From IMG/VR virus record IMGVR_UViG_3300035180_000678: a DNA stretch of 23,459 nt, one strand, 5' to 3'. Below the pieces are notes generated by a model that saw only the letters and a program-made list of their open reading frames with translations, made no database searches and had not been told where the DNA came from. This stretch comes from a virus. Its lineage: Duplodnaviria > Heunggongvirae > Uroviricota > Caudoviricetes. This document shows positions 1 through 23,098 of this stretch, one piece after another. Each line of letters opens with the position of its first letter. Positions within the stretch are counted from its first letter, which is position 1. Position numbers and translations under genes: made by a program.

Positions 1-2
1 GC

Positions 3-188
3 GGCGTACTGGGCATCGTGTCGGGTTACCCGGAGTACAACTACCACTTCGGCCCCGTTGCGACGGGCGTGGTGAAATACGAAGGCGAGAAGTACGGTGT
101 CAACCTCATCGTGCTCCCGCCGTCTCCGCTGAAGAACCATCCCGGCTCCACGTGGATGTACTCGGCACAGTTCAAGATCAAGTTCTGA
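3..188 (+). CDS. 5'-truncated hypothetical protein (GVLGIVSGYPEYNY...FKIKF)
   Basis: Open frame from the window edge to TGA 186-188; phage-like codon usage; directly precedes the SD of the next gene. Confidence 0.7.
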   Translation, partial: GVLGIVSGYPEYNYHFGPVATGVVKYEGEKYGVNLIVLPPSPLKNHPGSTWMYSAQFKIKF

Positions 189-197
189 AGGAGACTC

Positions 198-665
198 ATG
201 CAACAACCAACCCTTGGCAAAGGCCAAGTAGCCGTCGAAATTCGCACCGGCAATGTCTCGACAACACAAGGCGATGGCTACATTTCTCTCGAACTGACGG
301 ACCCCGTCTCGGGCATCCAGTTCGTTGACCTCCAGATTTCGTTCGAGGACTTCGGCAAGATCGTTGGGTCGGGCCGATCTGCTGTCGTGGCTGGGGAGCT
401 TCGTGGCCTCCAGTACGTAGGGAAGACCCGCGTGACGGAACGGCGGAGCATCCTCTGTCCGCCTGAAGCTGTCCCCGAGTTCGGGAAAACGGAAGACTAC
501 GAAAAGTGGCTCCGAGAGAACGCGCAGGAAGAGGGCTGGCTTGTGTCGTCCTATCTCGGCAGCCGTGACTCGAAGAAAAGCGTGTTCACCGAAGGCGGTT
601 GGAGCACTCGCAAGTTTCTCGGTACTCGTCTGCACTACCACGTCACGAAGTATGTTGACGTTTGA
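198..665 (+). CDS. hypothetical protein, 155 aa
   Basis: AAGGAGA SD before ATG 198; codon usage matches the operon. Confidence 0.8.
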   Translation: MQQPTLGKGQVAVEIRTGNVSTTQGDGYISLELTDPVSGIQFVDLQISFEDFGKIVGSGRSAVVAGELRGLQYVGKTRVTERRSILCPPEAVPEFGKTEDYEKWLRENAQEEGWLVSSYLGSRDSKKSVFTEGGWSTRKFLGTRLHYHVTKYVDV

Positions 666-825
666 GGACGTGCTGTGGGCAGCGGAAACTGCCACACGAG
701 AAATCAAGGTGCTCGTGCCCAGCAATTGCTACTATGCGAGCAAGGGAGACTTCGACGAAGACCACATCACATACATCGACGGAAAATACTTCGTTGAACT
801 TTTGAAGGAGAAGTTGGATGCCTGA
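652..825 (+). CDS. hypothetical protein, 57 aa (MLTFEDVLW...)
   Basis: ATG 652 overlaps the end of the upstream gene; in frame with track ORF 541..825. Confidence 0.65.
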   Translation: MLTFEDVLWAAETATREIKVLVPSNCYYASKGDFDEDHITYIDGKYFVELLKEKLDA

Positions 826-1024
826 TATTTCCATGTGCTCGGGCATTGCCTGCCCACGTGCAACCACTTGCTACCGCTTCACAGCGGAGCCGAACCCGTG
901 GCGTCAGTCGTATTTTGCCAACAGTCCCGTGAAGACCAATGGTGATTGCGACCACTTCATGCTTGACAACCGAACCCCCAAGGAGAAGAATGAGCGCACC
1001 CATGACGTTCAACGAGTTCGCTGA
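818..1024 (+). CDS. small Cys-rich hypothetical protein (DISMC..CP..TCYR...QSYF...C)
   Basis: Coupled start; four Cys in a pattern suggesting metal binding. Confidence 0.7.
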   Translation: MPDISMCSGIACPRATTCYRFTAEPNPWRQSYFANSPVKTNGDCDHFMLDNRTPKEKNERTHDVQRVR

Positions 1025-1247
1025 CCTCGTTTCGTACATCGCCAAGTTCCACAGCCCCACCCGCTTCTGCGGCAAGGGTTTGATCGTCAAGTACATCGAC
1101 CCGCACTTTGACATGCGGACCAATGACGTGTTCGCCATCACCTTCCGCACCTTCGGAGGTGGCGCAATCGAACTGCACACGCAAAACGAGTGCCGCTCGC
1201 TGCCCACAAGCCTCTACGAACGGTGCATGGACGCACTGACCACCTGA
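990..1247 (+). CDS. hypothetical protein, 85 aa
   Basis: AAGGAGA SD before ATG 990. Confidence 0.75.
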   Translation: MSAPMTFNEFADLVSYIAKFHSPTRFCGKGLIVKYIDPHFDMRTNDVFAITFRTFGGGAIELHTQNECRSLPTSLYERCMDALTT

Positions 1248-1257
1248 AAGGAGTGAC

Positions 1258-1539
1258 ATGACCCTTCGCGATCACGACCACCTGAGCAACGTTCTCTTCC
1301 TCTACGGAGGCGTGCGAGGTGGCGGCATGAGTCAGATGACCATGCTGAAGACACGTCCGACCAAGCTTCGCCCCCTCAAGGACACCGAAATCGTCCAACC
1401 CGGGGATGTGGTGGAAGACATGGCAGCAGGCGACCGTGTGCAAGTTGCCACGGGCACGTTCTACGAAGGCGTAGCGGGCTTCGCTGCCAAGCAAGTGAAA
1501 GAACTGGATCGCGTCTTCGACGTGCTGCGCCCCGAATGA
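1258..1539 (+). CDS. hypothetical protein, 93 aa
   Basis: AAGGAG SD before ATG 1258. Confidence 0.7.
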   Translation: MTLRDHDHLSNVLFLYGGVRGGGMSQMTMLKTRPTKLRPLKDTEIVQPGDVVEDMAAGDRVQVATGTFYEGVAGFAAKQVKELDRVFDVLRPE

Positions 1540-1700
1540 ACCCCTTCGCTCTCGCATACCTGCTGGCCCGCATGGGCTTTCCGTGGATGGCATTCGGAAT
1601 GATTCTCACGAATGAGAATCCGTTCTACTTCGTGCCCCACCTCGACACCAAACATGGCACTCAAGCTGCCAACGAACAAGGAGAACCAACCCGTGCGTAA
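1536..1700 (+). CDS. small hypothetical protein with hydrophobic N-terminus, 54 aa
   Basis: ATGA overlap with the upstream stop; fills the gap before the RNA ligase; not in the ORF track. Confidence 0.6.
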   Translation: MNPFALAYLLARMGFPWMAFGMILTNENPFYFVPHLDTKHGTQAANEQGEPTRA

Positions 1701-2883
1701 GCTCGCATCCATTCAACGCATCACCAACATCCAGCCGATCCCCGGCGCAGACAACATCGTCCGTGCGGACGTGCTGGGCTGGTCCGTCGTCGTCGGCAAG
1801 GACGAGTTCAAGGTGGGCGACCTCGCGGTCTACTTCGAGATTGACTCGTGGCTGGATTCGAGCAACCCGGCTTTCGACACGCCGATCTTCCAACCCCGAT
1901 TCGTCAACTGGGGCACCAAGCGTGGTATGCGCCTGAAGTCGATCAAGCTGCGCAAGCAACTGTCGCAGGGCCTGCTGATGCCCGTGACTGCATTCGGTGA
2001 TACGCTGTTCGCTCGTGCGCTGGGTGAAGGCGACGACGTGACGGAACTGCTGGGCATCGAGAAGTGGGAGCCCGCTGAAGAGACGCAATCCAATGGCCCG
2101 AACAAGTCCGCTGGCAGCAAGCCGTTCCCCTCGTTCATCCAGAAGACGGACCAAGAGCGCGTGCAGAACTACATGCACGTGATTCCCGAGCATCTGGACG
2201 AGACGTTCGAGGTGACGATCAAGCTGGACGGCTCTTCGATGACCGTCTACCACGTCGATGCCACCTCGCCGCATTTCGCACACGTGGCGAAGGACGAGGA
2301 AGCCCGCAAGCTGCGCAAGATGTCTGGCTGGGGCCGCTTCTGGTACAAGATCGGCCGTGCCCTCGGCTTCACTTCCGCCCCGAACTACTTCACGGGCGTG
2401 TGCAGCCGGAACATCCAACTCGGCATCGACGAGGACAACCACTTCTCGAAGTTCGCTCGCGAGCATCAGATGTTCGAGGCACTGGAGAACTATGCCCGCA
2501 ACATCGCCGTGCAAGGTGAACTGCTGGCCCCGTCCATCCAAGGCAACTACGAGCAAGTGAAGGGCTTCGAGTACCACGTGTTCGACGTGTTCGACATCGA
2601 CGATCAACGCTACCTGCTGCCGGAAGAGGCACGCGAGGTGGTGGATGCGCTGGGCTGGAACTACGTTCCGGTTCTGCACGACACGTTCTCGCTGTGTTCT
2701 CTGCTGTCCGGCAACCCGGAAGAGACCCCGCGTGACCTCGTGGACGCAATCCTCGACCTCGCTGAAGGCCCCGGCAAGAACCCGGGCGTGAAGCGTGAGG
2801 GCATCGTCTTCAAGAGCAACAAGACGCCGTTCTCGTTCAAAGCCATCAGCAACAGCTACCTGCTGAAGAAGGAGGGCAAATGA
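1693..2883 (+). CDS. ATP-dependent RNA ligase, Rnl2-like/DRB0094-type, with N-terminal OB-like domain
   Basis: GTG start after AAGGAGA. N-terminus RKLASIQRI..I.PIPGAD.I...VLGW.VVV.K.EF..GDL.VYFEIDS; nucleotidyltransferase motifs KLDGSS, GEL, FDVF, EGIVFK, FKAISNSYLLK. Confidence 0.9.
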   Translation: MRKLASIQRITNIQPIPGADNIVRADVLGWSVVVGKDEFKVGDLAVYFEIDSWLDSSNPAFDTPIFQPRFVNWGTKRGMRLKSIKLRKQLSQGLLMPVTAFGDTLFARALGEGDDVTELLGIEKWEPAEETQSNGPNKSAGSKPFPSFIQKTDQERVQNYMHVIPEHLDETFEVTIKLDGSSMTVYHVDATSPHFAHVAKDEEARKLRKMSGWGRFWYKIGRALGFTSAPNYFTGVCSRNIQLGIDEDNHFSKFAREHQMFEALENYARNIAVQGELLAPSIQGNYEQVKGFEYHVFDVFDIDDQRYLLPEEAREVVDALGWNYVPVLHDTFSLCSLLSGNPEETPRDLVDAILDLAEGPGKNPGVKREGIVFKSNKTPFSFKAISNSYLLKKEGK

Positions 2884-3044
2884 CCCAAGACGAACTGGAA
2901 GCTGAACTGAAGAAGCGCGGCATCGAGCTACAGATCGGTGCGTGCGGCTGCTGTTCTTCCCCGTGGGTTGCCGTCAAGATCGACGGCGAGAAGGTCTTCG
3001 ATGACGAGGGCGTCTCATTCGACTTCAACGAGGACGCCAAGTGA
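2880..3044 (+). CDS. small hypothetical protein with GACGCCSSPW motif, 54 aa
   Basis: ATGA overlap at the start and GTGA overlap at the end; not in the ORF track. Confidence 0.7.
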   Translation: MTQDELEAELKKRGIELQIGACGCCSSPWVAVKIDGEKVFDDEGVSFDFNEDAK

Positions 3045-3493
3045 CGATCATTCGTAGCTATGGCGATGCGCTGGATGTTGAGACTGGCATCATCGTCCAC
3101 GGTTGCAACGCCAAAGGTGTGATGGGCTCTGGCATGGCGAAAGCTGTCAAAGCGCAATACCCTGAAGCTTTCCGTGTCTACAGGGAAGCCTACGAGATGT
3201 GTGCAACACGGCTCGGCACGATTACAACCGTGGAGGTGGACCCCGGCAAATGGCTTGTCAATGCGATCACTCAAACCGACTTCGGCAGGGACGGAAAGAG
3301 GTATGTGAACTACGAAGCCGTGGCTCGCTGCTTCCGGGCAGTACGAGATTTCGGTCTGAACGTGGGGTGCAGCGATCTTCACTTCCCGATGATCGGGGCT
3401 GGCCTCGGGGGAGGTGACTGGGATGTCATCTCCGCCATCATCGAGTCAGAGACGCACGGGATGACGAAATACCTGTGGCTTTTGGTCGAATGA
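3041..3493 (+). CDS. macrodomain (ADP-ribose-binding/hydrolase) protein
   Basis: IIVHGCNAKGVMGSGMAKAVK and FPMIGAGLGGGDW are the two Gly-rich macrodomain loops. Confidence 0.9.
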   Translation: MTIIRSYGDALDVETGIIVHGCNAKGVMGSGMAKAVKAQYPEAFRVYREAYEMCATRLGTITTVEVDPGKWLVNAITQTDFGRDGKRYVNYEAVARCFRAVRDFGLNVGCSDLHFPMIGAGLGGGDWDVISAIIESETHGMTKYLWLLVE

Positions 3494-3497
3494 CCTC

Positions 3498-3526
3498 TTG
3501 ACGTGGGACTAAGAGCCGCATAAGAT
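3498..3526 (+). promoter_or_regulatory. sigma70 promoter upstream of PRTase-rtcB
   Basis: TTGACG-17 nt-TAAGAT in an intergenic gap. Confidence 0.7.
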
Positions 3527-3560
3527 GGCGGCTTCAGAAATTTCAAAGGAGGCTTCGCCC

Positions 3561-4043
3561 ATGCCCCGTTACGATGAAGGTGGTCGTTTCAATTCCAACG
3601 GATACGGAGATTGGAAGTTCAGCCGCAAAGAACTGCGCAAGCGTGCTGAAGCACTGGCTTGCAGTCTCCCAGCCGTCATGGCGGAGTTGCAGGCGGACTT
3701 CATCGCTGTGCGGGGAACGAGCGGAACCTTCATCGCTGGTGCTCTCCAGATGTACATGGACGTGCCTGTGCTCCTGATGCGCAAGCGTGGCGAAGCCTCC
3801 CACGGTTGCTTCATCGAAGGAAACGACCATCACCTGTACCGTCGTGGCATCGTTCTCGACGATTTCATTTGCACTGGAAGCACGGTTGAGGGTATGATCG
3901 ATGACTTGAAGAGGGACGGGCAGCCCGTTCGACTCGTGGCTATCGTGGAGCACGATAGCGCAGGAAGGTCGGGAACTTCGCTTCAACCTCGCACAGCCAC
4001 TTGCCTCAACGTTCGCAACATCCCCGTATACACGTTCAAATAA
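3561..4043 (+). CDS. type I phosphoribosyltransferase-fold protein
   Basis: AAGGAGG SD; VRGTSG loop, LMRK, and PRPP-binding loop IVLDDFICTGST. Confidence 0.75.
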   Translation: MPRYDEGGRFNSNGYGDWKFSRKELRKRAEALACSLPAVMAELQADFIAVRGTSGTFIAGALQMYMDVPVLLMRKRGEASHGCFIEGNDHHLYRRGIVLDDFICTGSTVEGMIDDLKRDGQPVRLVAIVEHDSAGRSGTSLQPRTATCLNVRNIPVYTFK

Positions 4044-4052
4044 AGGAAACAC

Positions 4053-5327
4053 ATGCCCATCATCACCCGCGAAGAAGGTTCCCGTCCCATCAAGGCATGG
4101 CTGGGCACGAAAGAAGTTCCGACGTATGGCTTCGAGCCGGGGACTGCGGACCAAGCCATCGAGAAAGTCATCGACGTGGAAGACGCCGCTCTCCAGCAGA
4201 CCAAGAACCTCGCCCGCCTGCCCTTCATCGCGCCGCAAGGCATCGCCCTCATGCCGGATGCCCACTTGGGCAAGGGTGCAACCGTCGGTTCCGTGGTCCC
4301 GACCATCGGCGCGATCATCCCTTCGGCTGTCGGCGTGGACCTCGGCTGTGGCATGAACGCTGTCCGCACGTCGATGAAGGCGAGCGACCTCCCCGAGAGC
4401 CTGAAGGCCATCCGTGACGCCATCGAGGCGGCTGTCCCGCTGGGCAAGGGCGGCAACCGGGACTTCGATCAAGAGACTTCGCTGCGCTCGCAAGAGTTCG
4501 GCGACCTCTACACGCGCGCCCCTCAGCAAGTCATTTACGAGGTGATGGGAGGTCATTCCGCTTTCGTGCAGAAGGCTGGTCCGCAACTCGGCTCCCTCGG
4601 CTCGGGCAACCACTTCATCGAAATCTGCACGGACGAGAACGACGACGTGTGGGTCATGCTGCATTCGGGCTCCCGTGGCATCGGCAACCTGATCGGCTCG
4701 CACTACATCGAGAAGGCCAAGAAGACGATGGAGCAATACTTCATCAACCTGCCCGACAAGGACTTGGCCTACATCCCGGATGGCACGGAGGACTTCAAGG
4801 ACTACACGGAAGCAGTGACGTGGGCGCAGGACTACGCACTGGCGAACCGTGCCGTGATGATGGATGTCGTCATCGCCGCTCTGCGGAAGCACATCTGCAA
4901 GGAGTTCGTCCTGACCAGCGAGGCCGTGAACTGCCACCACAACTACATCTCCCGCGAGAACCACTTCGGTCAGAACGTGTGGGTCACGCGCAAGGGCGCG
5001 ATCCAAGCCCGCAAGGACCAACTGGGCATCATCCCGGGCTCGATGGGTCAGAAGAGCTACATCGTGCGTGGCAAGGGCAACCCGGACTCCTACTGTTCGT
5101 GCTCGCATGGCGCTGGCCGGGCCATGTCCCGTGCGGAAGCCAAGCGGCGCTTCTCGCTGACGGACCTCGTGGCACAGACCGAAGGCGTCGAATGCCGCAA
5201 GGACGTGGATGTGCTGGACGAGATTCCGGGTGCCTACAAGCGCCTCGATGTCGTCATGGAACTCCAGAAGGACTTGGTGGAGGTGGTCCACACCCTCAAG
5301 GCCGTGCTCTGCGTGAAGGGGAACTGA
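4053..5327 (+). CDS. rtcB: RtcB RNA 3'-phosphate/5'-OH ligase
   Basis: Motifs MPDAH, GVDLGCG, LGSGNHF, HSGSRG, HHN, RKGA, PGSMG, SHGAGR, DEIPGAYK. Confidence 0.95.
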   Translation: MPIITREEGSRPIKAWLGTKEVPTYGFEPGTADQAIEKVIDVEDAALQQTKNLARLPFIAPQGIALMPDAHLGKGATVGSVVPTIGAIIPSAVGVDLGCGMNAVRTSMKASDLPESLKAIRDAIEAAVPLGKGGNRDFDQETSLRSQEFGDLYTRAPQQVIYEVMGGHSAFVQKAGPQLGSLGSGNHFIEICTDENDDVWVMLHSGSRGIGNLIGSHYIEKAKKTMEQYFINLPDKDLAYIPDGTEDFKDYTEAVTWAQDYALANRAVMMDVVIAALRKHICKEFVLTSEAVNCHHNYISRENHFGQNVWVTRKGAIQARKDQLGIIPGSMGQKSYIVRGKGNPDSYCSCSHGAGRAMSRAEAKRRFSLTDLVAQTEGVECRKDVDVLDEIPGAYKRLDVVMELQKDLVEVVHTLKAVLCVKGN

Positions 5328-5467
5328 TGGGGTATTCCGGCTATTCCCCTTGGCACAGAGGAAGAATTGCGTTCCAGATGGGCTTGCCAATCACGGCATG
5401 TCCTCACCGTAGTTGGAGCCAAGTTGCAGCCCTCTGGCGTAAAGGCTGGAATGAGGCCAGCCAATGA
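5327..5467 (+). CDS. RMF (ribosome modulation factor)-like peptide 1, 46 aa
   Basis: TGATG overlap with rtcB; HRG..A...G.....CP........W..GW.EA resembles E. coli RMF as I recall it (RGYQAG..G....CPY.......W.GGWREA). Confidence 0.6.
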   Translation: MGYSGYSPWHRGRIAFQMGLPITACPHRSWSQVAALWRKGWNEASQ

Positions 5468-5655
5468 AGCTCCGCTACTTCATCCTTCCCGCCCTGATGG
5501 CTGTTGCCTTCTCATGGGCTCTCATCAACCACGAAACCGAATACAAGGAGGCCCATCATCGGCACCCCATCCCCCAAGATTACTCGAAGAATCCCCGGGT
5601 ACGCCCCACAGGGCTCCCCCAACGCGAAACGGACGACTTCGGCCCCCGCTCGTAG
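5464..5655 (+). CDS. hypothetical protein with N-terminal hydrophobic segment
   Basis: ATGA overlap; the 3' part overlaps a second plausible frame (see findings). Confidence 0.5.
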   Translation: MKLRYFILPALMAVAFSWALINHETEYKEAHHRHPIPQDYSKNPRVRPTGLPQRETDDFGPRS

Positions 5656-5767
5656 AAGCACGGACGTGATCGTGGAAGAGACTGTCGTCTACGATGACGG
5701 CCCGTCCCTTCTCGACGTGGTGGAAGCCATCGTCGTCGCTGAAGTCATCAGCGATATGTTCGACTGA
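5558..5767 (+). CDS. hypothetical protein, start uncertain
   Basis: Protein-like frame ending ...AEVISDMFD; AAGGAGG at 5545-5551 is followed only by in-frame ATC codons. Confidence 0.45.
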   Translation: MGTPSPKITRRIPGYAPQGSPNAKRTTSAPARRSTDVIVEETVVYDDGPSLLDVVEAIVVAEVISDMFD

Positions 5768-5778
5768 AGGAGGAAAAC

Positions 5779-6006
5779 GTGTACAAATTTCGGACACAAG
5801 GCTTCACGCTCATCGAACTGATGATCTGCGTGGTAATCGTCGGCATCATCCTCGCTGTCGTCGTCCCCGCAATATTCGGGCACCACCCAACCCCTGTGGG
5901 CGACGGTTCCGTCTGCCAAGCGGGCTACAAGTACGTCCAGCAATACGACGGCACACTGCACCAAGTCATCGGTGCGAACGGCGGCGGGGTTCCCTGCAAC
6001 CCGTGA
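5779..6006 (+). CDS. minimal type IV prepilin-like protein, 75 aa
   Basis: AAGGAGG SD, GTG start; QG|FTLIELMICVVIVGII prepilin cleavage/methylation motif, hydrophobic helix, C-terminal Cys pair. Confidence 0.85.
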   Translation: MYKFRTQGFTLIELMICVVIVGIILAVVVPAIFGHHPTPVGDGSVCQAGYKYVQQYDGTLHQVIGANGGGVPCNP

Positions 6007-6464
6007 AGCTCATCGTCGCAGGCAGTCGTTCAATCACCGACTACGAATGCCTGAGATGGGCTCTTGTTGACTCTGGCATCTGGAAGGCACACAAGAAGTC
6101 CATCGAAGTTGTCTGCGGAATGGCAAAAGGAGCGGATGCGTTGGGCCTTGACTTCGCCAAGAAGAATGGGTTACAATGGCATCCGTTCCCAGCCGACTGG
6201 GACGACATCAAGGCTCCCGGAGCCGTGGTGAAGGTCCGAAGCGACGGCGTGATGTACAATGCCCGTGCTGGACACGACAGAAATCAGCGGATGGCGGACT
6301 TCGCCGACGCTCTCCTACTACTGTGGGATGGCAAAAGCACGGGCAGCCGTGACATGCACTCTCGCGCAATCAAGAAAGGACTTTCCACCCATGCGTACCG
6401 ATTCTCAGGACACCCTCTCCGTCCACCCGCTGTTCGGCTCGACCACCAACTACGCCCAGCGTGA
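6003..6464 (+). CDS. SLOG-superfamily (DUF2493/YspA-like) protein
   Basis: GTGA overlap; KLIVAGSR, VVCGMAKGADALG, AG..RN..MA..ADALLLLWDGKSTGS. Confidence 0.8.
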   Translation: MKLIVAGSRSITDYECLRWALVDSGIWKAHKKSIEVVCGMAKGADALGLDFAKKNGLQWHPFPADWDDIKAPGAVVKVRSDGVMYNARAGHDRNQRMADFADALLLLWDGKSTGSRDMHSRAIKKGLSTHAYRFSGHPLRPPAVRLDHQLRPA

Positions 6465-6834
6465 CACCCTCCAGATGGATGCCAAGGACGGCTACTTCAC
6501 GCGCCACATGGAAGCCATGACGGCCGAAGACCTCCACTCGAAGTACGCCATCGCGGCGGAACTCGGCTTCCGTGACATGCTCATCGATTTCCTCGCGGAA
6601 CGCACGCGTGAAGTCGAAGGTCTGCTGGTGGGTCTGCTGAAGGCGCACGACCTGCACAAGCTGGCGGAAGCCCGTTCGGAAGCGGGCGTGCCGACGATGG
6701 AAGGGGTGCTGTTCAACATGCTCTACTCCATCGCCGAAGCCAAGGCACGCGACTTCGCAGGTCTGCCCTCCGCCAAGGAAATCGACGACATGATCGCCGA
6801 GCAGATCGAGGCGGACAACACCGTCGATGCCTGA
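6391..6834 (+). CDS. hypothetical protein (YAQRD...HMEAMTAEDLHSK.AIAAEL)
   Basis: AAAGGA SD before ATG 6391; strong codon bias. Confidence 0.75.
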   Translation: MRTDSQDTLSVHPLFGSTTNYAQRDTLQMDAKDGYFTRHMEAMTAEDLHSKYAIAAELGFRDMLIDFLAERTREVEGLLVGLLKAHDLHKLAEARSEAGVPTMEGVLFNMLYSIAEAKARDFAGLPSAKEIDDMIAEQIEADNTVDA

Positions 6835-7090
6835 AGTCATCACGGAGGCCATGTACCGCAAGGGGAAGCCTCCCTTTGTGGGCTGGTGGCCCGCTTCCAT
6901 CGAAGCCACAGCTTTCCGCGTCTACCGCTGGTGGGACGGCGAGCAGTGGAGCTTCTGTGCTCATCGCTGGATGACGCCGGAAGCCGCTGCGGAGTGGGCT
7001 TCCCGGAAGTCTCTGCACAAGGACATCCAGTGGAGGTACTGGCTGCCGGGAGAAGACGGAGGGAAGCTGCCCAAGGAGTACATCGCGTGA
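6827..7090 (+). CDS. Trp-rich hypothetical protein (PP..GWWPAS...RWWDG..WS)
   Basis: Coupled start; codon usage. Confidence 0.75.
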   Translation: MPEVITEAMYRKGKPPFVGWWPASIEATAFRVYRWWDGEQWSFCAHRWMTPEAAAEWASRKSLHKDIQWRYWLPGEDGGKLPKEYIA

Positions 7091-7230
7091 CACCTCAACC
7101 TCTGACGGGAGCACAAGTCCTTCGACTCTGGCACAACGCTCCGAAAAACATCACCCACGGCCTGACGTTCGCTCAGTTCGCACGGATGCTGCGTTTCGTG
7201 GAGGAAGTTCACCAGATCGGACGGCCATGA
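7087..7230 (+). CDS. hypothetical protein, 47 aa
   Basis: GTGA and ATGA overlaps on both sides. Confidence 0.65.
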   Translation: MTPQPLTGAQVLRLWHNAPKNITHGLTFAQFARMLRFVEEVHQIGRP

Positions 7231-7532
7231 GCAAGGAGTGGACACGCTGGCCCACTTCCCGGGCTGTCTTCGACGCCATCCGCAACGAACACATGACCCG
7301 TCTTCGGGTCTTTTCGTCCTTCAGCAACCCCGAGGGAGGTTACATGGGCTTCAGCGGGCGTGGTGAAATGGAGACGGAGTGGGGGCTGGAAGGCACAGAC
7401 TACCCCATCCTCGGAGCCAATACAACGTGGGACATCTTCGACGAGTACGACCCGACCACCGGGCAACGGAAAGTTGGAGAGCGTAGCACAACCTATTGGC
7501 TCTGCATCGCAATCGAACAAGGAGAAACATGA
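7227..7532 (+). CDS. hypothetical protein, 101 aa
   Basis: ATGA overlap. Confidence 0.75.
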   Translation: MSKEWTRWPTSRAVFDAIRNEHMTRLRVFSSFSNPEGGYMGFSGRGEMETEWGLEGTDYPILGANTTWDIFDEYDPTTGQRKVGERSTTYWLCIAIEQGET

Positions 7533-7699
7533 ACGTCAAACAACTGCGGGAAGCTCTTCGAGTCCTCCCGGATGATCTGGAAGTGGTGCTGGAAGTCACT
7601 GTGGGCGACATTTACGCCTACCCTTCCGTCAACGCCTTCGGCATCACCGAGGAAGGCGAAGTCGTCCTCTTCTGCGAGCCGGAAGGGACGCCCGAATGA
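7529..7699 (+). CDS. hypothetical protein, 56 aa
   Basis: AAGGAGA SD, ATGA overlap. Confidence 0.75.
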   Translation: MNVKQLREALRVLPDDLEVVLEVTVGDIYAYPSVNAFGITEEGEVVLFCEPEGTPE

Positions 7700-7938
7700 G
7701 CATCCTCGGCAACCTGAACATCAACATCACAGCCGAACTCGGACGTGACGCGCTGGAAAAGATGGTCCGCGAGTACGTGGAGGCCAACAGTCCGGGCTAC
7801 ACCGTCAAGAAGGTCCACTGGGATGTGTCACAACAACATGACATGCGAGGTGAGCCGATGGGTGCAACTCTGACGAAGGTCCGGATCGAACTGGGTCCGA
7901 AGAGCCCGAAAAACGAGTGGGTAGGACAGGAACGATGA
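7696..7938 (+). CDS. hypothetical protein, 80 aa
   Basis: ATGA overlap. Confidence 0.75.
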   Translation: MSILGNLNINITAELGRDALEKMVREYVEANSPGYTVKKVHWDVSQQHDMRGEPMGATLTKVRIELGPKSPKNEWVGQER

Positions 7939-8399
7939 GCGGCATCCTTGACATCTCGGGATACTACGACCCGACATCCGTAGGCAAGATCACCTTCGGC
8001 CCTGCACCTCTCCTGACGGCTGCACCTCAATTTGATTGGACAGCCGTCCAGTCCTCGAAGAAGGAAATCGTCTGCAATGCCCTCCCTCCCCGCTACATGC
8101 TGGTGGTGAAGGCAGACAGCAACGACGCCGACTACCTGACGGCCACTTCCTTCATCGAGATGGAAGACCTCCCGCTGATCCGCCGCTGGGCAGACAACGT
8201 GAAGGGCAAGCGCCACCAGTGGGACACCCGCTGGGAGTACCGTGAAGAAGGTGACGATCCGGAAACCGTGTATGCGGGCCTCTTCACGGAGGAAGAATTC
8301 GAGCGGATCGCTCGCTGGGTGCCTCATGGCGACTACGGAGTCCACAGCATCGAGCACATCTGGCTCTTCGGGGTCTTCTCAGAGGAACGACTGGTATGA
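7935..8399 (+). CDS. hypothetical protein, 154 aa
   Basis: AGGA SD, ATGA overlap. Confidence 0.75.
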   Translation: MSGILDISGYYDPTSVGKITFGPAPLLTAAPQFDWTAVQSSKKEIVCNALPPRYMLVVKADSNDADYLTATSFIEMEDLPLIRRWADNVKGKRHQWDTRWEYREEGDDPETVYAGLFTEEEFERIARWVPHGDYGVHSIEHIWLFGVFSEERLV

Positions 8400-8596
8400 T
8401 CTTCTGGTTTGCCCTCCTGATGCTGGTCGTCTACCTCTTCGAGACTTCCTACCGGGCTGAACGTCCGATCATCTTCAAGTACAACAGCAACATCGAACGC
8501 TGGATGGCGAAGTACGAGGATGACGACGTGTGGACCTACCACACCACCAAGGCAGGTGCCATCAACCGCTGTCGTGAGAAGCGTCTGCAATGGTAG
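8396..8596 (+). CDS. small membrane-anchored hypothetical protein
   Basis: ATGA overlap; N-terminal hydrophobic helix. Confidence 0.7.
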   Translation: MIFWFALLMLVVYLFETSYRAERPIIFKYNSNIERWMAKYEDDDVWTYHTTKAGAINRCREKRLQW

Positions 8597-8706
8597 GCTG
8601 GATCGTCCTCGCCCTCCTGATCGTGTGGGCGGGCTGGTACATCCCAGCCATCTTCGAGTTCATCGGTGACTTGCTGGTGATGCTCATTCTCTGTTCTGAC
8701 GACTAA
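8590..8706 (+). CDS. small membrane peptide, 38 aa
   Basis: Coupled start; MVGWIVLALLIVWAGWY...; not in the ORF track. Confidence 0.55.
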   Translation: MVGWIVLALLIVWAGWYIPAIFEFIGDLLVMLILCSDD

Positions 8707-8714
8707 GGAGACGC

Positions 8715-8870
8715 ATGTCTGCATACCAAGAAGGCAAAGACGCCTACTGGGACGGCTTCTGGCATGACCAGAATCCCTACCCCATCGGCTCCACCGAGGA
8801 AGCTGACTGGGACGAGGGCTGGTTCGCTGCACGAGCCTGTGACGAAGACGACCCGGACTGGGAGGACTGA
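8715..8870 (+). CDS. RMF-like peptide 2, 51 aa
   Basis: AAGGAG SD; AYQEGKDAYWDG....NPY........WDEGWFAA; not in the ORF track. Confidence 0.6.
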   Translation: MSAYQEGKDAYWDGFWHDQNPYPIGSTEEADWDEGWFAARACDEDDPDWED

Positions 8871-9100
8871 TGACATATCCCATCTGCAAGAACTGTGCCC
8901 ACTACTCCACCGAACGTGAGTTGTATGGCTACGAGCACTGCGCACGAGACATCCGTCAATCCAATCCGGACCCTGTGACTGGACGGACGCACACCATCGG
9001 ACACCTCGACTGTTCCACCGAACGTGCCCCTCGGTTCATCTCCGTCTTCTCATCCAAGTGCGGACTCCGAGGACGCTTCTTCAAGGAGAAGCAAGGATGA
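8870..9100 (+). CDS. Cys-rich hypothetical protein (CKNC..., HC, C, C)
   Basis: TGATG overlap; possible zinc-binding pattern. Confidence 0.7.
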   Translation: MTYPICKNCAHYSTERELYGYEHCARDIRQSNPDPVTGRTHTIGHLDCSTERAPRFISVFSSKCGLRGRFFKEKQG

Positions 9101-9264
9101 CCTACGGCACTGACGCATACGAACAAGGCTACCAAGCCTACGTCAACGAGGACTCCAAGACAGGGAACGGAACCAACCCCTACCCCTTGTTCACCTGTGC
9201 ATGGGCTGACTGGAACGAAGGGTGGACGAGAGCCTACCTTGACTCCCATGACTCTCAGTGCTGA
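9097..9264 (+). CDS. RMF-like peptide 3, 55 aa
   Basis: ATGA overlap; AYEQGYQAY...NPYP.......WNEGWTRA. Confidence 0.6.
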   Translation: MTYGTDAYEQGYQAYVNEDSKTGNGTNPYPLFTCAWADWNEGWTRAYLDSHDSQC

Positions 9265-9361: not shown

Positions 9362-9408
9362 AAGCCTCCTAGACAGACATCCACATAGGACATCTGCCTA
9401 GGAGGCTT
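9362..9408. terminator. long hairpin ending the + strand operon
   Basis: AAGCCTCCTAG (9362-9372) and CTAGGAGGCTT (9398-9408) form a perfect 11-bp inverted repeat followed by TTC. Confidence 0.55.
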
Positions 9409-17380: not shown

Positions 17381-17425
17381 ATTCTGCCCGGAACCGTAGT
17401 TCCGGGCTACTAGGGGAAACCCTTA
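17381..17425 (-). promoter_or_regulatory. -10 element plus palindromic operator
   Basis: CAGAAT 17386-17381; TAGGGGAAACCCTTA 17411-17425; intervening GCCCGGAAC/GTTCCGGGC inverted repeat; 20-bp identity with 15632-15651. Confidence 0.65.
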
Positions 17426-17953
17426 GCGGTAGAGGTATGAGGTCCCGTTGATATCCGTTTCGCTGTAATCGTGGCGGAGTTCCCGGGCCGCTTCCTCCCA
17501 GTCGATGCAGGTACAGGGCCACGCGGCATCCCCGGGAATCGCGCCGATGTCCTCCGCGAATTGCTGCGCGTAGTCCGTGAAATGGGTTTCGCGAATGAGG
17601 TAGCCCGGGAACCAATCGCCCTCGAATTGATGATCCCCGCCATCCCCTCGGAGTTCGTCCACGATGCCCGACAGGGTGTCGAATTCTTCGCGGTTCTCTT
17701 CCTCCCATTCGTCGAGAGCTTCCCGGGCCGCTTCCGCGTCGGATTCCGCGTCCGTAACTGCCGATTGTGCGGCGTCCGTCTCCGCGTCGGGCTCTTCGCC
17801 CGTCAGGTCATCCCGGGCGAGCTTCGCGTTTTCGAGGGCTTCCGCCGCGTCCGTGATATCGGATTCGAGGTCCGCCCGCTCGTCGCGGAGTTCCGCGAAA
17901 CGCTCCGTGATGTCGGAAACGTTGATGATGTCGTCGGAAAGGTCGAGGTTCAT
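17423..17953 (-). CDS. highly acidic ArdA-like antirestriction (DNA-mimic) protein, 176 aa
   Basis: About 52 D/E versus about 12 K/R (hand count); C-terminal DYAQQFAEDIG.IP......CIDWEEAARELRHDY resembles the ArdA C-terminal YIDYE.Y.RDL pattern. Confidence 0.65.
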   Translation of the reverse strand: MNLDLSDDIINVSDITERFAELRDERADLESDITDAAEALENAKLARDDLTGEEPDAETDAAQSAVTDAESDAEAAREALDEWEEENREEFDTLSGIVDELRGDGGDHQFEGDWFPGYLIRETHFTDYAQQFAEDIGAIPGDAAWPCTCIDWEEAARELRHDYSETDINGTSYLYR

Positions 17954-17988
17954 AGGTTCACCCGTTCGGGTTTGTTGACAGTGAAGGA

Positions 17989-18017
17989 ATTCTAAGCTAT
18001 CGGCAGGGGCCACGCAA
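17989..18017 (-). promoter_or_regulatory. sigma70 promoter
   Basis: TTGCGT-17-TAGAAT. Confidence 0.75.
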
Positions 18018-21942: not shown

Positions 21943-22129
21943 GAGGGAACTCCTTCCGGGTTGTTGCTGTCACCGTAACGATGTGTACGGAATGGCTGAA
22001 CTGTAACCCACAGTCGAGCAAACTGTGCGTGAACTTTGTCACATACAACACTTAGGGCAAATACCTATACCCGTGTACGCACCATGTGTAACAATGTTCG
22101 TTTCGTCACATAGCTACAAGGAGAGACGT

Positions 22130-23098
22130 ATGGCTACCAAACCCAAACCTGATTTCAAGCCGCAGTTGGCTTGCGACTTCGAGGAATCGAAGCTGAAGTT
22201 CCCTCTCATAGCCATGCCCAAGATCGACGGCGTGCGTGGGATCAACTTCAGTGGCACGCTCACCGGGCGCAGCCTGAAGCTGCACGACAACCCGCACGTC
22301 ACGGCACGCTTCTCCGGGGAGCAGTTCATCGGCTTCGATGGCGAAATCGTCACCGACGACTGGACGCATCCGGACCTGTGCCGGAAGACCTCCGGCGACC
22401 TTCGTCGCAAGAAGGCTCCGACGCACTGCGATGCGGTGTGGTACATCTTCGACTACATCGCCCCGCACATGCAAGACCAAGCCTACCACGAACGGCTGAA
22501 TGCCGTGGAGGAATTGGTCACGGCTCTGCAAGCGGAAGGCTACAGCTACGTCCGCATGGTGCCGTGGAAGCTGGTGCATTCGCTGGAAGAACTTCTCGAC
22601 CTTGAGAATGTCTGGCTGTCGATGGGATTCGAGGGAGTCATCATGCGCGATCCGAACGCCCCGCACAAGCATGGCCGGGCCACCGTGAAGGCGGGGTCTT
22701 ACCTCCGCATCAAGCGTTTCATGGACTTCGAGGTGCGTGTCATCGAAGTCACCGAAGCGATGGAAAACCAGAACGAGGCCAAGACGAACGAACTGGGCCG
22801 CACCGAGCGTTCGACGCATCAGGAAAACCTCGTGCCGAAGGGTATGGCGGGGATGCTGAAGGCCGAAGTGCTGAAGGATGTCGTCTGGAATGGCAAGACG
22901 TTGATGACGGCGGGACAGGTCATCGACGTGGGGCCGGGCAACATGAACCACGATGACCGTGTGAAGTTCTTCAAGAACCCCGAACTCCTGACCTCCGAGG
23001 TGTCGAAGGTGAAGTTCTTCCCGCACGGCCAGAAGGACAAGCCTCGCTTCCCCACGTGGGTCTGCATCCGCTCCAAGGAGGACATGAGCGAGGGCTGA
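22130..23098 (+). CDS. ATP-dependent DNA ligase
   Basis: AAGGAGA SD; motifs PKIDGVRG (KxDG), FDGEIV, YIFD, EGVIMR, RIKRF, RFPTW. Confidence 0.93.
   Translation: MATKPKPDFKPQLACDFEESKLKFPLIAMPKIDGVRGINFSGTLTGRSLKLHDNPHVTARFSGEQFIGFDGEIVTDDWTHPDLCRKTSGDLRRKKAPTHCDAVWYIFDYIAPHMQDQAYHERLNAVEELVTALQAEGYSYVRMVPWKLVHSLEELLDLENVWLSMGFEGVIMRDPNAPHKHGRATVKAGSYLRIKRFMDFEVRVIEVTEAMENQNEAKTNELGRTERSTHQENLVPKGMAGMLKAEVLKDVVWNGKTLMTAGQVIDVGPGNMNHDDRVKFFKNPELLTSEVSKVKFFPHGQKDKPRFPTWVCIRSKEDMSEG

Follow-up and report, generated by a model that had tools for sequence, protein, structure and literature searches.

The question raised by this locus is whether three small peptides that resemble E. coli RMF, and that are encoded in a phage genome near genes for RNA repair, act on ribosomes as RMF does, or whether they have put the same fold to some other use. 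The window, by which we mean the whole stretch of DNA analysed, comprises 23,459 nucleotides (IMG/VR record IMGVR_UViG_3300035180_000678) of a sediment phage genome of 87 kb. The region was found in four DNA runs, from sediment and microbial mat, with zero differences reported, and thus offers no variation from which selection could be read; no RNA run is listed as containing it. A preliminary description had proposed that three paralogous RMF-like peptides beside RNA-repair genes shield or redirect ribosomes while ligases mend cleaved RNA, and had named reuse of the fold as a generic small interaction domain as its fallback. We refer to the three proteins as P1, P2 and P3 (Table 1).

Table 1. 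Features of the window, with positions counted from its first nucleotide.
Feature	Position	Strand	Description
ATP-dependent RNA ligase (Rnl)	1612..2883	+	N-terminal OB domain, PHA02142 type; PF21189 and PF09414; phrog_968
Macro-domain protein	3041..3493	+	Between the two ligases; PF01661, E 7e-8
RtcB 3'-phosphate/5'-OH RNA ligase	4053..5327	+	Pfam RtcB, E 2.5e-125; PHROG tRNA splicing ligase
P1	5327..5467	+	46 aa; basic, net +4, pI 10.3; Rmf/CrpP-fold, CPH type
63-aa ORF	5464..5655	+	Hydrophobic N-terminus; coupled to P1 stop; no family match
P2	8715..8870	+	51 aa; very acidic, net -14; Rmf/CrpP-fold, NPY type
76-aa Cys-rich ORF	8870..9100	+	Lies between P2 and P3, with translational coupling to each; phage-only family
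P3	9097..9264	+	55 aa; acidic, net -6; Rmf/CrpP-fold, NPY type
Hairpin, 20-bp	9362..9408	.	Terminator-like, from scan and sequence; closes the operon of the plus strand downstream of P3, where two gene blocks converge

All three open reading frames (ORFs) are present where they had been placed, with the motif that had been ascribed to them, and they are genuine phage genes. When P1, P2, P3 and E. coli RMF are aligned, a G, A, P, W, G, W and A are invariant, in the pattern G..A...(C/N)P(H/Y)...W..GW..A. The Shine-Dalgarno site of P1 is GAAGGGGA and that of both P2 and P3 is AAGGAG; because such a site precedes position 9097, a GTG start for P3 at 9058 is less likely. Starts and stops are tightly interleaved in both blocks. 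The rtcB stop and the P1 ATG overlap in the sequence TGATG at 5325-5329, which bears out the proposed translational coupling of the first copy to rtcB, and the P1 stop is in turn overlapped by the ATG of the 63-aa ORF (ATGA). Likewise, the P2 stop and the ATG of the Cys-rich ORF overlap, and the stop of that ORF overlaps the P3 ATG (ATGA). P2 ends in an acidic, Trp-containing tail, DEDDPDWED, and the interhelix loop of P3 carries a three-residue insertion.

P1, P2 and P3 are homologous to RMF. The preliminary description had suggested a profile comparison with Pfam RMF (PF04957; cut-off 27.9 bits), in which P1 passes with 29.3 bits and in which P2 (13.9 bits, E = 0.058) and P3 (12.6 bits, E = 0.15) are both under the cut-off when taken singly; these three are the only matches to the profile across the whole genome. 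The Rmf/CrpP family model of NCBIfam, NF041886 (cut-off 28 bits), accepts P1 at 32.5 bits, scores P2 below the cut-off at 13.1 bits and does not match P3. P2 and P3 are linked to RMF through the profile of their family: with P1, P2 and P3 included, it matches the RMF entries of the PDB (2jrm, 1.7e-6; 6h4n, 3.5e-5), and 38 of the 45 aligned small family members match Pfam RMF at E <= 0.01. A leave-out HMM, for which 40 family members from other contigs were used, scored P2 at 54.5 bits, P1 at 46.4, P3 at 35.3 and E. coli RMF at 25.7, and the next ORF of the window at 4.9. Single-sequence phmmer searches of the PDB gave zero matches for P1, P2 and P3. In PHROGs, P1 had only a weak match (phrog_13106, E = 0.006) and P2 and P3 had none, tblastn of P1 against phages gave only weak matches (E of at least 0.09), megablast of the region matched none of the phage records, and a word-index homologue search returned P2 itself alone for P2 and nothing for P1.

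P1 and P2 are also predicted to adopt the two-helix Rmf/CrpP fold and to superpose on the core of RMF. Their AF2 models have pLDDT values of 89 and 92, respectively. RMF structures are the best PDB matches of the P2 model (9iot, TM 0.68, rmsd 1.3 Å; 2jrm, TM 0.72), and for the P1 model a VIA wide search placed RMF (4v8g) first among 48,161 chains, with a Z of 5.2. All 21 of the top 21 matches of the P1 model in the Swiss-Prot AFDB are RMF, and residues 8-45 of P1 fit residues 12-48 of E. coli RMF with an rmsd of 1.2 Å; RMF was not among the matches listed by Foldseek for the P1 model against the PDB. The preliminary description would have been refuted by the lack of a significant profile or structural match to RMF; both kinds of match exist, and RMF is the best match for both models. 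The BFVD holds more than 200 phage proteins with the same fold as P2, several copies of which occur in single Caulobacter phages.

These proteins belong to a large and already catalogued family of phages and plasmids. The Rmf/CrpP domain is represented by 4,190 cluster representatives at E <= 1e-3, many of the proteins that contain it consist of two to eight repeats of the domain with no further Pfam domain, and related phages have from zero to two Rmf-fold copies each. Annotated members of this phage and mobile-element group (NF041886 'Rmf/CrpP family protein', NF041887 'Rmf/CrpP fold protein'; PF04957) occur in the Caulobacter phages CcrSC and CcrBL9, in Delftia phage IME-DE1 and in Gluconobacter phage GC1. 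The three proteins resemble such phage and mobile-element proteins in size (44-70 aa), motif, two-helix fold and mostly acidic character, and in their location in early or accessory gene blocks with multiple copies per genome. They differ in that P2 and P3 are too diverged for the curated cut-offs alone, and in the uncommonly basic character of P1 and its place within an RNA-repair module; all three fail the cut-off of 40 bits of NF041887, the phage Rmf-like equivalog, which gave 26.6 bits for P1 and no match for P2 or P3. A search of the literature for the function of phage Rmf-like proteins found no paper.

CrpP was reportedly first described as a ciprofloxacin-modifying enzyme, a role that later biochemical work is said to have disputed, and crpP-like genes are reportedly not always associated with ciprofloxacin resistance. 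Encoded on ICEs and plasmids of Pseudomonas, CrpP belongs to the same superfamily as P1, P2 and P3 and is, like them, small and carried by a mobile element. However, all three fail the CrpP model NF033696 (cut-off 55 bits), with just 13.3 bits for P1 and no match for P2 or P3, and the relationship has no bearing on quinolones here.

The identity between any two of P1, P2 and P3 is 22-35%, which indicates that they are not recent duplicates, and each is nearer to proteins of unrelated contigs (up to 52% for P2) than to the other two. The term paralogous therefore applies only loosely; judged from their sequences, the three copies appear to be either anciently diverged or separately acquired.

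P1, P2 and P3 are single-domain members of the Rmf/CrpP-fold superfamily, a two-helix module of about 40 residues, and we consider it reasonably likely that they serve as small binding adaptors that are not RMF-like in action. This corresponds to the fallback of the preliminary description, the reading best in accord with the data. The fold is probably built by the conserved residues, Gly, Ala, Pro and Trp (G..A, (C/N)P(Y/H), W..GW..A), with the variable surface setting what is bound. Each copy would be a small, stoichiometric binding adaptor, produced by translational coupling with its neighbours. P1, which is basic and would be made together with RtcB, would most likely bind either RNA or one of the proteins of the RNA-repair module. 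P2 and P3, acidic, with aromatic-acidic tails and apparently co-translated with the Cys-rich protein, would most likely dock on the basic surface of a protein of the host or the phage, probably one that binds nucleic acid.

The surroundings of P1 bear on a more specific possibility, namely that P1, and neither P2 nor P3, serves the RNA-repair module as an accessory subunit, a small basic RNA binder that would present or protect broken tRNA, or a broken 16S rRNA 3' end, for RtcB or Rnl, like PrfH with RtcB2. We regard this as possible but unlikely. An alignment of 18 phage RtcBs has many invariant columns, among them C99 and the SCSHG stretch that contains H352, which we take to be the metal-binding Cys and the GMP-accepting His, respectively. 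Archease is a known cofactor of RtcB; the 172-aa ORF upstream of rtcB matches no Pfam family at threshold, so no archease was seen. A complex prediction for RtcB with P1 returned a score of 0.00, which has no bearing either way on binding.

The termination-reinitiation by which P1 would be translated right after RtcB favours such a subunit, as does the module of the closest relative phage. In that phage, whose RtcB is 72% identical, a basic copy of the CPH type lies right after Rnl and 430 bp before rtcB, and a nearby macro gene encodes a 45.5% identical homologue of the macro-domain protein found here. On a third contig, of only 1.9 kb, Rnl is directly followed by a basic Rmf-fold copy, and the most basic of the 45 sampled family members are P1 and its counterpart in the closest relative. 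The association is, however, confined to one clade and so may have arisen in only one or two events of evolution. At 22 other phage rtcB loci and 80 other Rnl loci, the surrounding 4 kb contain no Rmf-fold ORF, and such an ORF is also missing from Bordetella phage PHB04, which by RtcB is the nearest relative in culture. A degenerate DNA pattern for CPH...W..GWN recovered 10 loci, with RNA-repair genes only at that of the known relative. The placement of RMF-like peptides beside RNA-repair genes accordingly holds for P1 here, for its counterpart in the closest relative and, with Rnl, for the 1.9-kb contig, and it does not extend to the roughly 100 other rtcB or Rnl loci. Further members that are mildly basic or of the CPH type sit in unrelated contexts, and P1 is no nearer to the copy of the closest relative (35-41% identity) than to unrelated members (37%).

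There is precedent for an RtcB with a ribosome-binding partner, acting on 16S rRNA (PMC9223846, PMC13166195, PMC5416887). The likeness to RtcB2-PrfH, which repairs rRNA in E. coli (PMC9223846, PMC13166195), is one of arrangement alone, an RtcB gene with a gene for a small protein of a ribosome-binding fold family; PrfH is homologous to release factors and has no relationship to RMF. We hold it very doubtful that P1, like its counterpart in the closest relative, is a dedicated subunit of the Rnl/RtcB/macro module, in which the RMF fold would place it at or close to the 16S rRNA 3' end, or on other broken RNA, which it would guide or protect for religation.

For P2 and P3 another reading has to be weighed, which strikes us as improbable though worth considering: that they might be mimics of nucleic acid or of the SSB tail, acidic decoys that would inhibit a DNA- or RNA-binding protein of the host, for example a defence or replication factor. 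It draws on their extreme net charges and on the C-terminus of P2, on the similar acidic-aromatic tails of many family members, and on a related phage in which a similar tandem pair comes right after a long ORF that, judged by eye, resembles a DNA polymerase, but this support is compositional. The Cys-rich ORF between P2 and P3 has no Pfam or PHROG family; it falls in Atlas clusters of 92-227 members that are almost entirely viral. Rfam and tRNA scans of the window returned nothing.

Far less probable is the explanation with which the locus was introduced, that all three copies bind host ribosomes in the manner of RMF and shield, redirect or hibernate them while Rnl and RtcB mend RNA. The true homology and common core fold with RMF would agree with it, as would the basic charge of P1 and its coupling to RtcB. 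According to a preprint by Beckert et al. (10.1101/382572), RMF contacts 16S rRNA through Arg3, Lys5, Arg8, Arg11 and Arg15, and its N-terminal extension is intertwined with S7. The part of RMF from Gammaproteobacteria (E. coli b0953; NF011162; PDB 6H4N, 4V8G, 9IOT, 2JRM) that is homologous to the phage proteins is its core, residues 12-48, with the G..A, CP(Y/H) and W..GW..A motifs and the fold in common; the basic N-terminal extension is absent from P1, P2 and P3, and residues 1-10 have no counterpart in them. In the alignment P1 keeps one of the five contact residues, R11 being the equivalent of Arg15, and has lost the other four. P2, P3 and the copy of the closest relative keep none of the five, the position of Arg15 being occupied by Glu in P2 and Gln in P3, and Arg3, Lys5, Arg8 and Arg11 are absent from all three proteins of the window. 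The net charge of P1 is positive, like that of an rRNA binder, and those of P2 and P3 are of the opposite sign. As they lack the basic arm at the N-terminus and the arginines with which RMF grips 16S rRNA, we do not expect P1, P2 or P3 to act like RMF.

The wider context also argues against ribosome shielding or hibernation. None of the three reaches the cut-off of the RMF equivalog NF011162 (40 bits; P1 15.9, P3 10.1, P2 no match), the domain is very common in phages, often repeated and found in many contexts unrelated to translation, and the link to RNA repair is restricted to one small phage clade. Given that P1 and its counterpart are the most basic of the sampled members and lie inside an Rnl/RtcB/macro module, a role at the ribosome or on rRNA stays conceivable for P1, and the protect-and-repair idea survives, at low odds, for P1 only.

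Hardly credible at all is the notion that the motifs arose by chance, in sequence that is non-coding or read out of frame, and are not genes. P1 is indeed absent as a called gene from a large protein collection, and the genome is GC-rich, which makes spurious open frames common. Yet the three score 35-54 bits with the leave-out HMM against at most 5 for every other ORF of the window, all three have Shine-Dalgarno sites and tight start/stop overlaps, the AF2 models of P1 and P2 are confident, and a related phage has a counterpart.

The resemblance to RMF in phage genomes is thus real homology and by itself no sign of ribosome hibernation, as the same tiny fold has been reused thousands of times, mostly with reversed charge. 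Any partner identified for the common phage Rmf/CrpP mini-proteins would be informative for thousands of genes. A new question could be opened here only by the basic copy inside the RNA-ligase module: if P1 were a cofactor of a ligase or of rRNA, the RMF fold would be linked to RNA repair, and if it were a subunit of the repair module near 16S rRNA or broken RNA, the arrangement would be a phage analogue of the RtcB2-PrfH pair.

The three short ORFs that the preliminary description had singled out as similar to RMF, the ribosome modulation factor of bacteria, were found as described, and are referred to here as P1, P2 and P3. Seven residues (G, A, P, W, G, W and A) are the same in all three and in E. 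coli RMF when the four sequences are aligned. By their sequence features, all three ORFs appear to be genuine genes. The ATG of P1 shares its A with the stop codon of rtcB (TGATG), bearing out the proposed coupling of this copy to rtcB, and has the Shine-Dalgarno site GAAGGGGA; the P1 stop codon in turn overlaps the ATG of the next ORF. P2 has an AAGGAG Shine-Dalgarno site 5 bases upstream, and its stop codon overlaps the ATG of a cysteine-rich ORF whose own stop codon overlaps the ATG of P3, likewise preceded by an AAGGAG site. Across the whole phage genome, the Pfam RMF model and a family profile identify exactly these three places. The cysteine-rich ORF, with P2 upstream and P3 downstream and translationally coupled to both, falls in clusters of 92-227 members, phage-only or nearly so, that match no known family; it may form a unit with these two acidic Rmf-fold proteins.

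Features of the plus-strand gene block and of the remainder of the window
Feature	Position	Strand	Remarks
Plus-strand gene block	1-9264	+	Rnl ... RtcB, P1 ... P2, Cys-rich ORF, P3
Rnl (OB-domain ATP-dependent RNA ligase)	1612-2883	+	
54-aa ORF		+	between RNA ligase and macro gene
Macro-domain protein	3041-3493	+	
172-aa ORF	3525-4043	+	between macro gene and rtcB; faint phosphoribosyltransferase similarity only (phrog_2068, E 1e-4; Pfam Pribosyltran, E 0.08)
RtcB (RNA ligase)	4053-5327	+	directly before P1
P1 (46 aa)	5327-5467	+	
63-aa hydrophobic ORF		+	directly after P1
SLOG/YspA-family domain protein	5694-6464	+	PF10686; phrog_289; just 3' of RNA-repair genes
Run of small ORFs		+	after SLOG/YspA gene; last three are P2, Cys-rich ORF and P3
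P2 (51 aa)	8715-8870	+	
Cys-rich ORF (76 aa)	8870-9100	+	
P3 (55 aa)	9097-9264	+	
Hairpin, 20-bp stem	9362-9408		closes plus-strand block, between convergent plus- and minus-strand blocks; likely a two-way terminator
Anti-restriction-like protein	17423-18013	-	elsewhere in window; phrog_25535 and phrog_2059
ATP-dependent DNA ligase	22025-23098	+	elsewhere in window; phrog_114

The window belongs to a phage record of IMG/VR that is 87,459 bp long and has direct terminal repeats; the phage's nearest cultured relatives by RtcB are Bordetella phage PHB04 (62% identical) followed by Burkholderia and Ralstonia jumbo phages. The region is present in four DNA runs from sediment and microbial mat, with no differences reported. 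Metagenome contigs aligned to it produce short depth spikes with many loose ends at 5797-5847, ~6620-6756 and ~8538-8674; the contigs at these spots are those of other organisms, with ~5 mismatches, and chance sharing of short GC-rich stretches with unrelated genomes is the probable cause.

P1 exceeds the curated cut-offs of both Pfam PF04957 (29.3 bits, cut-off 27.9) and the NCBIfam model NF041886, 'Rmf/CrpP family protein' (32.5 bits, cut-off 28), while P2 and P3 taken singly reach only E 0.06-0.15 against Pfam RMF. An exhaustive profile search, whose six query sequences were P1-P3 plus three counterparts found in two related phages, returned 4,190 cluster representatives with E <= 1e-3. The small single-domain matches share the pattern M.(P/A)Y.EG..A...G......(N/C)P(Y/H)..G......W..GW..A, in most cases with an acidic tail after it. 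Pfam RMF matches 38 of the 45 small members that were aligned, and a profile of the 45 matches the solved RMF structures 2jrm (1.7e-6), 6h4n and 4v8g (both about 4e-5). To avoid circularity, the HMM was rebuilt without any sequence of this phage or its relatives; it scored P2 at 54.5 bits, P1 at 46.4, P3 at 35.3 and E. coli RMF at 25.7, with the next best ORF of the window at 4.9.

Structure models of P1 and P2, generated by AlphaFold2 with the family alignment, are confident helix-loop-helix folds (pLDDT 89 and 92, respectively). The best PDB matches of the P2 model are RMF structures, namely 9iot (TM 0.68, rmsd 1.3 A), 2jrm and 6h4n. A Foldseek search of the PDB with the P1 model missed RMF; exhaustive alignment of this model to 48,161 chains placed ribosome-bound RMF (4v8g) first (Z 5.2), its top 21 Swiss-Prot AlphaFold matches are all RMF, and P1 residues 8-45 superpose on E. 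coli RMF residues 12-48 at 1.2 A. The preliminary description had named the lack of a profile or structural match to RMF as a refuting result; profile matches and, for P1 and P2, fold matches are both present, and the match to RMF is real.

The preliminary description had further proposed that the three act on the ribosome in a protect-and-repair system, and here the comparison with RMF argues against it. RMF, in the hibernating ribosome of E. coli, has its helix 1 inserted between h28 and h37/h40; Arg3, Lys5, Arg8, Arg11 and Arg15 form bonds with the backbone of the rRNA, and the N-terminal extension of the protein is intertwined with S7 (preprint 10.1101/382572). The phage proteins, in contrast, align from roughly RMF residue 8-12 onwards, and of the contact residues P1 retains only the equivalent of Arg15, a position occupied by Glu in P2, Gln in P3 and Ala in the copy of the closest relative. 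Their net charges are +4 (P1), -14 (P2) and -6 (P3), and all three score at or below 15.9 bits against the RMF equivalog model NF011162, whose cut-off is 40. An acidic 51-residue protein such as P2 would not be expected to fill the rRNA cleft as RMF does. The homology and fold stand, but RMF-type action is improbable, and the three are most likely small binding adaptors and not ribosome hibernation factors.

Proteins with this fold are common and modular. Many of the best database matches are proteins of 90-1300 residues in which the domain is repeated in tandem 2-8 times and no other Pfam family occurs; the large metagenomic ones, of 250-1317 aa, consist of such repeats. In BFVD, the Rmf fold is shared by more than 200 phage proteins; the Caulobacter phages CcrSC and CcrBL9 each contribute several, and some BFVD entries are already annotated 'ribosome modulation factor'. 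NCBIfam models already exist for the Rmf/CrpP superfamily as well as for a subgroup from phages. The copy number in related phages is 0, 1 or 2. One of these phages, of 80 kb, has an adjacent pair (1329-1647, +), one near-neutral and one acidic, directly 3' of a long ORF that by eye reads like a DNA polymerase. As P1, P2 and P3 share only 22-35% pairwise identity and are closer to proteins from unrelated contigs (37%, 52% and 41% identical, respectively) than to one another, the earlier term 'paralogous' holds only in the sense of a shared superfamily.

The closest relative, an 87,772-bp contig with an RtcB 72% identical, has a basic CPH-type copy 41% identical to P1 directly after its RNA ligase gene and 430 bp before rtcB, with a homologous macro gene nearby. 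A third contig of 1.9 kb has Rnl followed by an Rmf-fold gene, in the same order. Among 45 sampled members, none is more basic than P1 and the closest relative's copy. The set of OB-domain Rnl, macro gene, RtcB and basic Rmf-fold gene occurs in this phage (window 1612-5327) and in the closest relative (2152-5272 of one locus and 346-915 of another), and its gene order differs between the two. Neither a Pnkp-type end-healing enzyme nor an archease turned up in the window.

This arrangement, together with the coupling of P1 to RtcB, would fit an accessory role for P1 in RNA repair, which we consider unlikely but retain because RtcB is known to act together with a ribosome-binding partner, in RtcB2-PrfH (PMC9223846, PMC13166195), and to religate the 16S 3' end (PMC5416887). 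A ribosome-targeted version of this role would be very improbable. Against the accessory role, no Rmf-fold ORF lies within 4 kb at 22 other phage rtcB loci or 80 other Rnl loci, other mildly basic or CPH-type members have unrelated gene neighbourhoods, and orthology between P1 and the closest relative's copy is not clear; the association may therefore reflect a single lineage-specific event. P1, P2 and P3 are new, diverged members of a group already known and widespread in phages and mobile elements, the Rmf/CrpP-fold mini-proteins, and the RNA-repair link of P1 is the sole unusual point of the finding.
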